NCBI GenBank assembly: GCA_002478945.1
Contig: DLKM01000026.1
Location: 348 to 64,347 of the forward strand
DNA length: 64,000 nucleotides
DNA from: Christensenella sp. UBA7588
GTDB taxonomy: Bacteria; Bacillota; Clostridia; Christensenellales; CAG-917
Reading direction: 5' to 3'
Shown: one piece after another, positions 20,980-35,951 of the stretch
Layout: each line of letters opens with the position of its first letter
Position numbering within the stretch: position 1 is the first letter of the stretch
Notes under the pieces: generated by a model
Databases searched by the model: none
What the model was told of the DNA's origin: nothing
The model's input: only the letters and a program-made list of their open reading frames with translations
Program-made: the position numbers and the translations under genes

Positions 20980-21984
20980 ATGAGTGTAACATTTGAAGGT
21001 TATGAAAGAAGAATAGACAAAATCAACGGCGTTCTTGCTCAATACGGCATCAAGGACCTCGAAGAAGCAAGAGACCTCTGCCTCTCCAAAGGCGTTGATT
21101 GCAACGCAATCGTCAAAGGCATTCAACCTATCTGCTTTGAAAACGCAGTTTGGGCATACACCGTCGGATGCGCAATCGCAATCAAGAAAAATTGCGTAAA
21201 CGCGGCAGACGCGGCAGAAGCTATCGGCGAAGGTTTGCAATCGTTCTGCATCCCCGGCTCCGTTGCAGAGCAACGTAAAGTCGGTCTCGGACACGGCAAC
21301 CTCGCGGCAATGCTCCTCAGAGAAAGCACCAAGTGCTTCGCTTTCCTCGCAGGTCACGAATCGTTTGCGGCGGCAGAAGGCGCAATCGGCATTGCAAGAA
21401 CTGCAAACAAAGTCAGAAAAACTCCGCTCAAAGTCATCCTCAACGGTCTCGGCAAAGACGCGGCATTTATCATCTCTCGTATCAACGGCTTCACTTACGT
21501 CCAAACCAAAATGGACTACTTCAGCGGCGAAGTGAAAGTTGTCAAAGAGACTCCCTACTCCAACGGCGAGCGCGCGGCAGTCAGAGTGTACGGCGCAGAC
21601 GACGTAACCGAAGGCGTTGCGATTATGCGTCTCGAGGACGTTGACGTTTCTATCACGGGCAACTCCACCAACCCCACTCGTTTCCAACACCCCGTCGCAG
21701 GCACTTACAAGAAATGGTGCGTTGACAACGGCAAAAAATACTTCTCCGTTGCGTCAGGTGGCGGCACGGGTCGTACTCTCCACCCCGATAATATGGCGGC
21801 AGGTCCTGCGTCCTACGGTATGACCGACACGATGGGTAGAATGCACTCCGACGCACAATTTGCAGGTTCTTCATCCGTTCCCGCACACGTCGAAATGATG
21901 GGCTTAATCGGTATGGGCAACAACCCGATGGTCGGTGCAAGCGTTGCTTGCGCAGTCGCAGTACAAGAAGGTTTGACAAAGTAA
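20980..21984 (+). CDS. GGGtGRT family protein (function unknown)
   Basis: Contains the eponymous ASGGGTGRTLHP motif. Confidence 0.75.
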   Translation: MSVTFEGYERRIDKINGVLAQYGIKDLEEARDLCLSKGVDCNAIVKGIQPICFENAVWAYTVGCAIAIKKNCVNAADAAEAIGEGLQSFCIPGSVAEQRKVGLGHGNLAAMLLRESTKCFAFLAGHESFAAAEGAIGIARTANKVRKTPLKVILNGLGKDAAFIISRINGFTYVQTKMDYFSGEVKVVKETPYSNGERAAVRVYGADDVTEGVAIMRLEDVDVSITGNSTNPTRFQHPVAGTYKKWCVDNGKKYFSVASGGGTGRTLHPDNMAAGPASYGMTDTMGRMHSDAQFAGSSSVPAHVEMMGLIGMGNNPMVGASVACAVAVQEGLTK

Positions 21985-22333
21985 GTTGTGCGCAAAGCAA
22001 CGATTGATTGTTTGCGTAGCAAATAGCACCAGTAACACAAAAGGCACTCAACAGAGTGCCTTTTCTGGTGCAGAATAATCGGTCGCTTGTGCAGTAGCAG
22101 TACAAGAAGGTCTCACGAAGTAATCGTTTGCACAAGCGAACGAAAAATCTTTGCGTAAGCAAAGTAGAACCAAAACACAAAAGCACCTGAAAAGGTGCTT
22201 TTTGGGTTCTATAAATTGCGTTGCTTGCGCAGTCGCTGTTCAAGAAGGTTTGACGAAGTAAGAAAAACCTACTAAATAGTAGCATTTTGAAGAATATAGC
22301 ACCTATCCAAAAATTGCGATAGGTGCTATTTTT
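21943..22333 (+). repeat. Tandem array (period ~137-140 bp) of the last 13 codons plus stop of the GGGtGRT gene, each copy followed by its own terminator
   Basis: The 42-nt copies lie at 21943-21984 (in the gene), 22082-22123 and 22220-22261. All translate to VACAVAVQEGLTK-stop. Terminator hairpins lie at 22043-22066, 22182-22203 and 22297-22333. Confidence 0.9.
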
Positions 22334-22480
22334 ATATCTAAGAGTGTTCCGTTTGGGAAAGAAATGTAAACAATGTTTACCGTTTGTTTACCGAATTTTA
22401 AAAACGCAAAAACCCACCGTTGGATGGGGTTTCGCTATATTCAACTTCTTATTATCTTTTTTATTTGTAACATTTTAAGA

Positions 22481-22891
22481 CTACATATCTAAAACTAAAT
22501 TTTTAGTCAATTCTATAGCGTTATATATTGGCAATTGAATAGTTGACATGCCCGGTTGAGTCGTAACCAATGATATTTGACTACGCAAATATGGCAACAT
22601 TATAGCAACAGTATTTGTCTTGAGCATTGACAACTGAATCTCCTTATCTAAAATTTCAGCGTTGACAAGCTCAAAATCAGCTTGTTCACACGCCGTAACA
22701 TTCAGATCTCCTTGCCCCTTTATGGTTAGCATTATAACTACTCTTACAGATTTTTCCGTAAGTTTTCTATATTTAATATCAAAACTAGCATCAGCCTCAA
22801 TCTTTCCTATATAATCTACATTTCTTGAGATACACATACTAGGAAAGCATAAATTATACATCTTAAGTAATCCTTGTATGTTAGTTTCCAT
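22481..22891 (-). CDS. SecB-like chaperone (TAC system chaperone)
   Basis: VRVVIMLTIKG...ACEQADFEL...AIMLPYLRSQISLVTTQPGMSTIQLPIYNA parallels E. coli SecB VVLRVTVTA...LCEVQQGGIF...[41 protein letters not shown] lies 12 nt after the higA stop. Confidence 0.7.
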   Translation of the reverse strand: METNIQGLLKMYNLCFPSMCISRNVDYIGKIEADASFDIKYRKLTEKSVRVVIMLTIKGQGDLNVTACEQADFELVNAEILDKEIQLSMLKTNTVAIMLPYLRSQISLVTTQPGMSTIQLPIYNAIELTKNLVLDM

Positions 22892-22903
22892 AATACACCT
22901 CTT

Positions 22904-23272
22904 TTAAGCAGCATATACCGCTGAGTTAATAATTATCTTTTTCCCTACTGACAAATCTTCAACTGGCATAAACAGTTCGGTATTCTGTTTGTTTTCAGAT
23001 ATCTCGAATCTGCTTTTGTATGATTCTTCTTTTCCAAGTTGGAATAACTCATATTTTTTTTGTTGATACAGCAAACTATCAGCCGGATATCCTGTTGCCT
23101 TTTCAAAAGCAGCTGCCATCAATGTTGTGACGCTTCTCTTTCCTGCTAGCATACTACTAATTACAGTTTTATTTACATTCATCTCTTTTGCAAGCCATTT
23201 TTGAGATTTGTTAATTGACATTAAAACTGTTCGCATTATGCTTCCAGGATGAACGCAATAATCTTTTTCCAT
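22904..23272 (-). CDS. higA: HigA-type XRE-HTH antitoxin with a C-terminal extension (candidate chaperone-addiction segment)
   Basis: HPGSIMRTVLMSINKSQKWLAKEMNVNKTVISSMLAGKRSVTTLMAAAFEKATG is a HigA-like HTH. It is followed by a ~45-aa tail. Start at MEKDY, preceded by AAAGGAG. Confidence 0.75.
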   Translation of the reverse strand: MEKDYCVHPGSIMRTVLMSINKSQKWLAKEMNVNKTVISSMLAGKRSVTTLMAAAFEKATGYPADSLLYQQKKYELFQLGKEESYKSRFEISENKQNTELFMPVEDLSVGKKIIINSAVYAA

Positions 23273-23331
23273 ATTCATATCTCCTTTTATATTTAAAGCA
23301 ATACATCTATAACATAATATGATATGTATTG

Positions 23332-23652
23332 TCATAATCTATACTTATGTTTGTCTATTTTTATTATCTCAATTTCAATCCCTTGATTACAACGTTTTAG
23401 ATAAAGCCTATAAAGACTTTTTTTCTTTTTAGGAATAATCCTTAGTGAATACTTGTCAATTGTCCCTTGAACCTTTTCATAGTTATACCCATGGAAATTT
23501 CTCATTAGATCAATATTGTTAATTGATTCTAGCATAGAAATTAAGACTTTTAAACACATCACCAATTCTTTATTATGGTTAAAAAACTTGTTCATTTCTT
23601 TCTCGCTTGAACAAAGTTTTTCTATTTCATTATTGGCATATGTAATTATCAT
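23332..23652 (-). CDS. higB: HigB-like (plasmid-maintenance killer / RelE-fold) toxin
   Basis: Toxin-first gene order. Pattern ...DLMRNFHGYNYEKVQG..DKYSLRI....RLYLKR......IEIIKIDKHKY matches the HigB family layout. Start trimmed to MIITYANNE. Confidence 0.65.
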   Translation of the reverse strand: MIITYANNEIEKLCSSEKEMNKFFNHNKELVMCLKVLISMLESINNIDLMRNFHGYNYEKVQGTIDKYSLRIIPKKKKSLYRLYLKRCNQGIEIEIIKIDKHKYRL

Positions 23653-23678
23653 AGATCCTATACTTCCCCAAAACAATG

Positions 23679-23733
23679 GTTAACAATTTTTGTTAACTAA
23701 GGATATTATATATAAGGAAAACTTATATTTCAA
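23679..23733 (-). promoter_or_regulatory. TAC promoter with an operator-like inverted repeat
   Basis: Minus strand reads TTGAAA-17 nt-TATAAT (23733-23705). An 8-3-8 inverted repeat GTTAACAA-AAA-TTGTTAAC (23679-23697) lies just downstream of the -10 element. Confidence 0.65.
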
Positions 23734-23871
23734 GCATTTTAACGAACTTTTTTAAGTTTTTAATAAATCGCACTTTATTGTCACCAACAATACTCTTAGA
23801 AAACAGAGCTTACAATATTTAACCTCCACAAGAATTAAAAATTTCCAAGAGATAACAAATATATTAAATAA

Positions 23872-23970
23872 AGTATTTTGATATTGCTAGATATCAATTT
23901 TGGAATTACTGCAATGTTGCTTGCAGCTGTAACAATTCAAAAAAGACTTATAAGGCAAGTTAAACTTTAA
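23872..23970 (+). pseudogene. Possible relic 3' end of a divergent, AT-rich GGGtGRT-family gene
   Basis: Translates to ...NFGITAMLLAAVTIQKRLIRQVKL-stop, compared with the host gene end NPMVGASVACAVAVQEGLTK-stop. Shares TTGCTTGC at the nucleotide level. Similarity is weak. Confidence 0.35.
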
Positions 23971-24053
23971 AACAATCCCGTTTCGCCACTTTTATTTGCG
24001 TTATAGAGTTTTAAATTTATAATGTCTTAATTATTAATTTCAGTAAAAAACTT

Positions 24054-24659
24054 TTAGCACCCTAAAACTTGGTTTACAATCACCACCTCATACGGGCAAT
24101 TTGTGGGTTTGCGCCAAAGGACGACGAGACCTTTGCAAATGCGTTCGGGGCTGTTGCAATTATAGCATCTGTCGGCGTTTACGGCGCACGGCGTGTTTTT
24201 ATGAAGGCGTTTTGCATTCTTGGGTGCGGCAACGTTTCTTGCACGCCACAATGCGCTGTCGAAGTCGGGCGCAATCTTGTTGTTGCCGACGATAATATAC
24301 ACTTTCTCGTGTCCGTACAATTCCCCTGCCACTCTGTTGCAGTTGCCGTCGATATTGATAATCTCGCCCGTTTCGGCAATGCCGTTTGCACTTGTCAAAA
24401 AAACGTCGGCGGTAAGCGACTCTTTCATAACTTCGGTCGGAGTTTTTCCGTCGGGATTGTCAAACCTATATAGGACCTTGTTGTGCGATTCGAGCATTTT
24501 GAGTATTCCCGTCTCGTCAAGCGTCACGGAGCCGCCGAATCCGACGCTTTTGCCGTCTATTGCGCCGTTAAGATAGTCGTTTGCCTCTTGCACGGTATCG
24601 AATACGGACACCGTAAAGCCGTTTTTCTCGAGATTTGCTTTTATATTTGAATAGTCCAT
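24054..24659 (-). CDS. LUD-domain (LutC/YkgG-like) protein
   Basis: 201 aa; ...FGGSVTL...FLTSANGIAETGEIINIDGNCNRV... and a C-terminal Cys cluster CYNCNSPERIC. Confidence 0.7.
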   Translation of the reverse strand: MDYSNIKANLEKNGFTVSVFDTVQEANDYLNGAIDGKSVGFGGSVTLDETGILKMLESHNKVLYRFDNPDGKTPTEVMKESLTADVFLTSANGIAETGEIINIDGNCNRVAGELYGHEKVYIIVGNNKIAPDFDSALWRARNVAAPKNAKRLHKNTPCAVNADRCYNCNSPERICKGLVVLWRKPTNCPYEVVIVNQVLGC

Positions 24660-35863: not shown

Positions 35864-35951
35864 TGGTGCCGGCGGTCGGACTCGAACCGACACGGATGAT
35901 TAGTCCACAGGATTTTGAGTCCAGCGCGTCTGCCAGTTTCACCACGCCGGC
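35864..35951 (-). tRNA. tRNA-Leu (anticodon CAA), class II with a long variable arm and encoded CCA
   Basis: Minus strand reads GCCGGCG...CTGGA-CTCAAAA-TCCTG...GGTTCGAGTCCGACCGCCGGCACCA. The acceptor stem is 7 bp. There is one U-U mismatch in the anticodon stem. Confidence 0.85.

Follow-up and report, generated by a model that had tools for sequence, protein, structure and literature searches.

Toxin-antitoxin-chaperone (TAC) systems join a chaperone to a toxin-antitoxin pair, and the dependence of the antitoxin on that chaperone, through a chaperone-addiction (ChAD) element, has been described (PMC5105189, PMC6377645). TACs with HigBA, MqsRA, HicAB, and CmdTA units are already known; outside the Proteobacteria they are sporadic and horizontally transferred, and toxin-less antitoxin-chaperone pairs also occur (PMC5105189; PMC4257090). 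Here we examine a locus in a stretch of 64,000 nucleotides from Christensenella sp. UBA7588 (contig DLKM01000026.1), hereafter the window. The locus is very probably a TAC operon on a horizontally acquired segment of ~1.9 kb, in which one promoter serves genes for a divergent HigB-like toxin, a HigA-type antitoxin, and a SecB-like chaperone. A TAC operon had been proposed here in an earlier reading of the window, made without database searches (the sequence-only reading). That interpretation is supported by the present analysis, some of its predictions only weakly by sequence.

The locus is like HigBAC of Escherichia coli NT1F31 in its toxin-antitoxin-chaperone order, its HigB-type toxin, tailed HigA, and SecB-like chaperone, and its nature as a mobile accessory locus (Mets et al. 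2024, bioRxiv 10.1101/2024.02.24.581848). However, the E. coli ChAD is 96 residues long, has four spaced aromatics, and is independent of ClpXP, whereas the tail here has 42 residues and a Tyr-Ala-Ala end. A lambdoid prophage carries the E. coli system, but the locus here has no flanking phage genes, and its toxin, unlike that of E. coli HigBAC, is not recognized by the Pfam model PF05015. The locus is also like E. coli CmdTAC, the later name of the system PD-T4-9 (PMC9519451), in that its chaperone matches PD-T4-9_C and its antitoxin has an Ala-Ala end akin to the LAA of CmdA (PMC9519451, PMC11618068). In contrast to CmdTAC, the toxin is a 106-amino-acid HigB-like protein rather than an ADP-ribosyltransferase of ~190 amino acids, and the antitoxin has a helix-turn-helix (HTH) domain, which CmdA lacks. 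A PADLOC scan gave no match to the toxin, CmdT included; only the chaperone matched its PD-T4-9 counterpart.

The three-gene logic is shared with the Mycobacterium tuberculosis TAC Rv1955-Rv1957 (PMC5105189, PMC6377645), whose chaperone SecB^TA (5MTW) is among the top fold matches of the chaperone studied here. The two chaperones are only 14-18% identical in structural alignment and belong to different clades by sequence. The sequence-only reading had taken the M. tuberculosis system as its model. Two refinements apply: the chaperone falls in the clade that usually partners CmdT, and the toxin-antitoxin pair is of the Rts1 HigBA type. Toxin-first order is found in Proteus vulgaris Rts1 HigBA and Pseudomonas putida GraTA as well (4MCT, 4MCX, 4PX8, 6F8S). 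Among solved structures, theirs come closest, to the antitoxin directly and to the toxin via intermediates, but both are two-component systems with neither chaperone nor tail, and the toxin family here has an additional basic loop and a ..DKHKY end in place of ..DYH. No source examined gives a name to any of the three proteins. What is new in the locus is limited to a toxin subfamily missed by Pfam, the combination of this toxin with a chaperone of the CmdC clade, an operator that is conserved, and a natural series of decay and occupancy at one chromosomal site.

Organization and control of the operon

The three tightly packed minus-strand open reading frames (ORFs) of the sequence-only reading are present at 22481-23733 with the lengths that it gave (106, 122, and 136 amino acids), and the peptide strings that it quoted are found in the sequence. 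They encode, in that order, a toxin-like, an HTH, and a SecB-like protein (Table 1). As the same reading had noted, they lie in an AT-rich islet, with a G+C content of 26-33% over 22200-24000 against 45-55% in both flanks. The gap between the toxin and antitoxin genes is 57 nucleotides, and only 12 nucleotides separate the antitoxin stop from the chaperone start. An alternative in-frame ATG two codons upstream would lengthen the HTH protein to 124 amino acids.

The claimed promoter is there, and it is tied for the top promoter-like score across the 1.9-kb region; it is identical in two related loci, L004 and L005 (related loci are numbered with the prefix L). The claimed palindrome also lies just past the -10 element. 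Its pattern, GTTAAC-N7-GTTAAC, occurs once in the window against 0.01 copies expected by chance. An intrinsic terminator, to which the sequence-only reading had made no reference, comes after the third gene. Thus the locus has the makeup of a TAC operon: three linked, co-directional genes, one promoter, and one terminator.

Table 1. Features of the candidate TAC locus and its surroundings (positions in the window)
Feature	Position	Strand	Remarks
Toxin gene, 106 aa from ATG	23332..23652	-	Divergent HigB-like (RelE superfamily); family-specific basic loop PKK(K/R)KS
Antitoxin gene, 122 aa from MEKDY	22904..23272	-	HigA-type XRE helix-turn-helix domain (residues 7-80) plus C-terminal tail
Antitoxin tail coding region, residues 81-122, ...KKIIINSAVYAA	22907..23032	-	Putative chaperone-addiction (ChAD) element, Ala-Ala C-terminus
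SecB-like chaperone gene, 136 aa	22481..22891	-	CmdC / PD-T4-9_C clade
Sigma-70-type promoter TTGAAA-17-TATAAT	23705..23733	-	11/12 consensus positions
Putative HigA operator, 8-3-8 palindrome GTTAACAAaaaTTGTTAAC = GTTAAC-N7-GTTAAC	23679..23697	.	7 nt downstream of -10 element
Intrinsic terminator, CCCATCCAACGGTGGG then T-run	22403..22428 (hairpin 22428..22413)	-	Sole terminator-like site in region, 3' of third gene
Inserted accessory segment, ~1.87 kb	22204..24068	.	L183 homology ends at 22203, restarts at 24069
LUD-domain gene	24054..24659	-	Cassette flank
GGGtGRT gene	20980..21984	+	Cassette flank

A SecB-like chaperone of the CmdC clade and its partners

That the third gene encodes a SecB-fold chaperone, as the third gene of a TAC does, is settled by its match to the PADLOC model of the CmdTAC chaperone, PD-T4-9_C (E = 5.9e-10), together with its predicted fold. 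The sequence-only reading had called the protein SecB-like and had made this hang on a SecB fold, and such a fold was found. An AlphaFold model built with nine homologues (predicted local distance difference test [pLDDT] score, 79.6; predicted template modeling [pTM] score, 0.74) has four long strands and then a long helix. When this model was compared with the PDB in Foldseek, E. coli SecB (1QYN) ranked first (template modeling [TM] score, 0.72; E = 7e-6) and Rv1957 with a ChAD peptide (5MTW) third (E = 1.4e-5), and all matches with E < 5e-4 were SecB proteins. Sequence searches of the PDB, with the single protein or with a family profile, gave no match; only fold comparison worked. Two distant relatives of the chaperone, P0014 and P0015, carry precomputed matches to the Pfam SecB model, PF02556. 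By sequence, the protein is best placed in the CmdC/PD-T4-9_C clade, apart from the M. tuberculosis chaperone.

We scanned one genome per GTDB species for this chaperone and obtained 105 loci, of which the best 80 were kept (L007-L086). All but two of these best 80 are titled Clostridia, Bacillota, or unclassified bacteria, and the closest chaperone from the scan is 35-41% identical to that of the window. At ~70 loci, the chaperone gene directly follows a small gene and a toxin-sized gene, and the partners are of three types. One has toxins of ~190 amino acids matching PD-T4-9_A (CmdT) and antitoxins of 80-95 amino acids; the closest reference-genome relatives of the window's chaperone follow such CmdT-like toxins. 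Another has toxins of ~139 amino acids with a weak match to RelE (PF06296) and MqsA/HTH_3 antitoxins of ~128 amino acids, and the third is a HigB-like and HTH pair, as in the window. The distinct antitoxins beside this chaperone clade end in Ala-Ala in 36 of 70 cases and in Ala-Cys in another 15 of 70, compared with an Ala-Ala end in 7 of 1021 background proteins (the long ORFs of the same loci).

Two side observations concern these C-termini. The MqsA/HTH_3 antitoxins paired with the chaperone end in hydrophobic residues (..VAMF, ..VAML, ..VAVI), not in Ala-Ala. A large Lachnospiraceae group of CmdT-like systems has antitoxins ending in ..AIAC.

The HigA-type antitoxin and its tail

The second gene encodes what a TAC antitoxin consists of, namely a HigA-type HTH domain with a C-terminal extension. 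The HTH_3 match that the sequence-only reading expected was obtained barely at threshold (23.1 bits; cut-off, 23). Residues 7-80 align to positions 5-79 of the 81 in NCBIfam TIGR02607, the HigA family addiction module antitoxin (E = 3.5e-11), and the nearest solved structures in a PDB search are those of P. vulgaris HigA (4MCX and 4MCT). An extension of ~45 amino acids had been claimed, and residues 81-122 do lie beyond the HigA model. This tail of 42 residues includes Y85, F89, F101, and Y120 and ends in Tyr-Ala-Ala. In relatives the tail is always present and varies in length and sequence, and its extreme C-terminus stays YAA, FAA, CAA, or FAI.

The YAA end resembles an ssrA-like degron for ClpX. 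Roles for the tail as ChAD and degron are suggested by the literature: CmdC protects CmdA, which ends in LAA, from degradation by ClpXP (PMC11618068), and the ChAD tail of M. tuberculosis HigA1 has a C-terminal aliphatic ClpX degron, Val-Ala (bioRxiv 10.1101/2024.02.24.581848; PMC11618068). Because of its YAA end, a protease-dependent version of the TAC mechanism is favored for this antitoxin, though it is not proven.

A divergent HigB-like toxin

We call the product of the first gene HigB-like, by transitive homology; we do not claim formal membership in PF05015 for it. The sole direct hint is a weak full-length match to PHROG 3066, "toxin of TA system" (E = 0.004). A word-indexed protein search found seven relatives of the toxin and eight of the chaperone, and when 1.84 billion representatives were searched exhaustively with a HMMER profile, only 29 toxin relatives came up at E ≤ 1e-3, eight of them at E ≤ 1e-10. 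From these results we aligned 28 proteins, comprising the window toxin, four close homologues, and more distant matches. PF05015 (HigB-like_toxin) is matched at E ≤ 0.01 by 12 of the 28, with a best E of 9.7e-15. In hhalign, the core toxin family (A5) aligns to the distant PF05015-type set (A4) over 100 columns (99.6% probability; E = 1.4e-23), and the A4 profile in turn matches solved HigB (4MCT, 4PX8) and GraT (6F8S) with E values of 4e-7 to 5e-6.

A direct bridge between the core family and PF05015 is provided by the toxin of L007, a locus in a Catabacter metagenome-assembled genome. It is matched by the core profile (E = 4.7e-11) and reaches 33 bits with PF05015 (gathering threshold, 27), and it sits in the same arrangement of toxin, HTH antitoxin, and SecB-like gene. 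The invariant residues of the family include R71, R82, H102, and Y104. In alignments, the conserved Arg of HigB and GraT is matched by R82, and the terminal His of the "..DYH" sequences by H102. The basic insertion PKK(K/R)KS is peculiar to this family and absent from canonical HigB. In a low-confidence model, the predicted secondary structure runs from helices to a beta-sheet, an order compatible with RelE/HigB. The toxin is related to the RNA-cutting HigB toxins but unusually divergent from them, and together with its antitoxin it is of the Rts1 HigBA type.

Conservation and mobility of the cassette

The three-gene order recurs in L001-L006, L007, L087-L089, and L177. Of these, L087-L089 are near-identical contigs, and L004-L006 represent a lineage that is 95% identical. 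The toxins of the others are 54-55% (L177), 49% (L001-L003), and 35% (L007) identical to that of the window. Between the -10 element and the start codon, GTTAAC-N7-GTTAAC is present in the window and in L004, L177, and L001 (three lineages), and the surrounding sequence has diverged. At the same position, L007 has a different palindrome, of 9-1-9 form. Such a pattern is expected if an autoregulatory operator evolves in step with the HTH protein that binds it, although the operator is putative and its binding is what we infer. Between the window and L004, the ratios of nonsynonymous to synonymous substitution rates (dN/dS) of the three genes are 0.17, 0.16, and 0.08, on only 8-12 substitutions each. 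As read from these alignments, purifying selection is shown for all three genes.

The cassette lies between a LUD-domain gene and a GGGtGRT gene. In the protein cluster of the latter, the one named member comes from a Christensenellales metagenome-assembled genome. Eight contigs with a LUD protein of at least 90% identity (L178-L185) have the LUD and GGGtGRT genes next to each other, 248-500 nucleotides apart, with no TAC between them. The closest such empty site is L183 (~97% nucleotide identity in LUD and 94.7% in GGGtGRT by blastn), and the points at which its homology to the window breaks off and resumes give the size of the insert in Table 1. The window and L004 share a core at 22079-23778 with 94.7% identity, compared with 80-85% in the flanks. 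Synonymous divergence (dS) between them is 0.075-0.124 in the TAC genes and 0.64 in LUD, that is, 5-8 times lower in the cassette. From this lower divergence and the empty sites, it follows that the cassette is accessory and moved between lineages after the lineages had diverged. No integrase, transposase, or target-site duplication was found at the edges of the insert. We considered a phage- or plasmid-borne module and dropped the idea; a search for the chaperone among known phages and plasmids gave one marginal phage match and no plasmid match.

Probable mechanism and alternative explanations

The published TAC mechanism most likely applies here, by analogy with M. tuberculosis HigBA1-SecB^TA, E. 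coli HigBAC, and CmdTAC, from which we take its steps; the anatomy of the locus agrees with that of published TACs in every point. The tail would act as a chaperone-addiction element, making the antitoxin prone to aggregate and, through the Ala-Ala end, a substrate of ClpXP. A tetramer of the chaperone would bind the tail and keep the antitoxin able to neutralize the toxin. Phage capsid or tail proteins are reported to titrate a TAC chaperone (bioRxiv 10.1101/2024.02.24.581848; PMC11618068). Likewise, newly made phage structural proteins or other unfolded clients could draw the chaperone away here, and the antitoxin would be lost. The freed toxin would then cleave ribosome-bound mRNA and stop translation, the outcome being abortive infection or an arrest of growth. 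Autoregulation of the operon would come about through binding of the antitoxin, by itself or together with the toxin, to GTTAAC-N7-GTTAAC over the transcription start. The system could serve in phage defense by abortive infection, as E. coli HigBAC, CmdTAC, and MqsRAC do, or it could answer to stress or to jammed export, the role proposed for the M. tuberculosis TAC.

Several results weigh against a TAC operon working in this way, and they also feed the alternatives. E. coli HigBAC functions without ClpXP (bioRxiv 10.1101/2024.02.24.581848); therefore, the degron step is not universal among TACs. No phage, plasmid, or defense-island context was found for the locus. The antitoxin scores 42.8 bits with TIGR02607, short of the curated cut-off of 47.7. 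The PF02556 match that the sequence-only reading had expected for the third protein did come up (E = 1e-3), but its 19.5 bits do not reach the gathering threshold of 26, and the NCBIfam SecB models are likewise below their cut-offs (E = 0.004-0.08). One could suppose that a two-component HigBA merely adjoins a SecB-like gene with a separate role, as a general or export chaperone, and that the antitoxin is independent of it. The tail is indeed poorly conserved in sequence, and SecB-like genes stand alone in some Firmicutes (PMC4257090). We nevertheless hold this to be very unlikely: the antitoxin and chaperone genes share promoter and terminator across a gap of 12 nucleotides, and toxin, tailed HTH antitoxin, and chaperone stay linked even where the toxins are just 35-55% identical. 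At the ~70 other loci, genes of this chaperone clade always come after a small gene, whatever the toxin family, and its product usually ends in Ala-Ala or Ala-Cys; in L171-L173, described below, the chaperone is retained with the tail-coding remnant alone. The first gene raises a different doubt, namely that it is not a RelE-type RNase but some other effector or regulator that resembles HigB in profile space. Direct sequence searches of Pfam, NCBIfam, PADLOC, and the PDB with the toxin gave nothing meaningful. The PF05015 match predicted by the sequence-only reading, in particular, did not appear, so that the HigB-like call stands through the profile link instead. The core family profile has no match in the PDB, and the AlphaFold model of the toxin is poor (pLDDT 66), with no fold match found. 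Thus, the RelE fold and RNase activity of the toxin rest on transitive profile links, and the basic insertion of the family is foreign to canonical HigB. Against this doubt stand the hhalign alignment to PF05015-positive proteins, the L007 relative above the Pfam threshold, the helices-then-sheet order, and the identity of the partner, a HigA that is closest, among solved structures, to the antitoxin of Rts1 HigB. Taken with these, a gene outside the RelE type is highly improbable.

A further alternative is that the locus is a decaying or silent remnant, hitchhiking DNA with an inactive toxin. Related loci do decay. In L001 (5895-6216; also L002 and L003, so in contigs of three independent samples), the toxin gene has a -1 frameshift after about codon 33. 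Its N-terminal part, MKIEYENNKIEKLCNDENEMKRFFKNAKLEEV, runs to a stop and the remainder lies in another frame; the antitoxin and chaperone genes are intact. In L171 (3817-4411; also L172 and L173), at the chromosomal site where the window has its TAC, the toxin and the HTH domain are gone, and what remains is a 56-amino-acid ORF and an intact chaperone gene. The short ORF corresponds to the last 56 antitoxin codons, with the tail ..KKYELFQLEKEE...NTVVYAA, and the chaperone is 74% identical in protein sequence to that of the window (dN 0.17, dS saturated). This pair may be either a remnant of the antitoxin-chaperone type or a case of retained function. Because of the decay in these two groups, the activity of the window copy is not guaranteed; the weak ribosome-binding site of the toxin gene, as read from the sequence, and the great divergence of the toxin from characterized HigB proteins point the same way. 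However, none of the three ORFs is broken in the window, L004-L006, or L087-L089, and dN/dS values are 0.08-0.17 on small counts. Promoter and operator are identical between lineages in spite of 5% divergence in the cassette, and the invariant Arg, His, and Tyr positions of the toxin are preserved. A dead locus is therefore something to which we give little weight, and a TAC operon is the explanation that we prefer.

Neighborhood of the cassette and related sites

The interval between LUD and GGGtGRT has other occupants. L091 (3177-4178), a close relative with 95% identity in GGGtGRT, has a gene for a 333-amino-acid acyltransferase-like membrane protein there and no TAC. In L004 (5744-5878) the TAC cassette borders on what is left of a gene of this kind, 44 amino acids from the N-terminus. 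In the window, ~290 noncoding nucleotides with ~27% G+C (23779-24068) lie between the shared edge of the cassette and the LUD stop codon. Neither L004 nor the empty sites have an equivalent of this stretch, and the last ~5 LUD codons differ from the empty-site versions. On the other side, at 21921-22261, the window has three tandem copies, with a period of ~139 nucleotides, of the last ~45 nucleotides of GGGtGRT and a hairpin terminator. The gene truly ends in copy 1, and the other two are remnants. Two copies are present in L183, and in L004 copy 1 is missing. These tandem copies suggest repeated recombination or insertion at the 3' end of the gene.

A diversity-generating retroelement lies upstream of the antitoxin remnant and chaperone in L171 (83-3598; also L172 and L173). 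Its parts are a target ORF ending in ..YWWLRSPRSGYSSSFCYVNSSGNADSTYASASCGLSFGFCI, an Avd-like gene of 152 amino acids, a 400-amino-acid RVT_1 reverse transcriptase, and a 127-amino-acid membrane protein, and its template repeat encodes ..NWWLRSPNSGNSNNFCNVNSNGNANNNNANNSYGLSFGFC, with Asn at the variable positions. We considered whether this reverse transcriptase is a retron or defense enzyme coupled to the chaperone. That idea was rejected on two grounds: variable and template repeats, Avd-like gene, and reverse transcriptase together make up a diversity-generating retroelement, and the adjacent 56-amino-acid ORF is the 3' remnant of the antitoxin gene. Elsewhere in the window, Rfam at its gathering threshold gave a single match, a tRNA gene at 35867-35951 (-).

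Implications

It is tempting to see in this locus a natural hybrid TAC with which gut Christensenellales sense phages and abort infection. In this view, a chaperone of the CmdC clade, whose normal partners are ADP-ribosyltransferase toxins, would have recombined with a rare, previously unclassified HigB-like lineage, the toxin would be released when the capsid or tail proteins of gut phages compete for the chaperone, and the tail remnant-chaperone pair beside the retroelement in L171 could have a function of its own. We offer this as a speculation that is rather doubtful as it stands.

TAC systems are established both as stress-responsive and as anti-phage modules, and the locus described here does not change how they are understood; it is a real but ordinary example, and a clean one, from an uncultured lineage of gut Clostridia. 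It does illustrate their natural modularity, in that at least three types of toxin-antitoxin pair (CmdT-like, RelE/MqsA-like, and HigB/HigA-like) have the same chaperone clade as their partner. It also defines a small subfamily of HigB-like toxins that lies beyond current Pfam models. With its 42-residue Ala-Ala tail, conserved operator, and natural decay intermediates, the group makes a compact set for the study of chaperone addiction outside the Proteobacteria and Actinobacteria.

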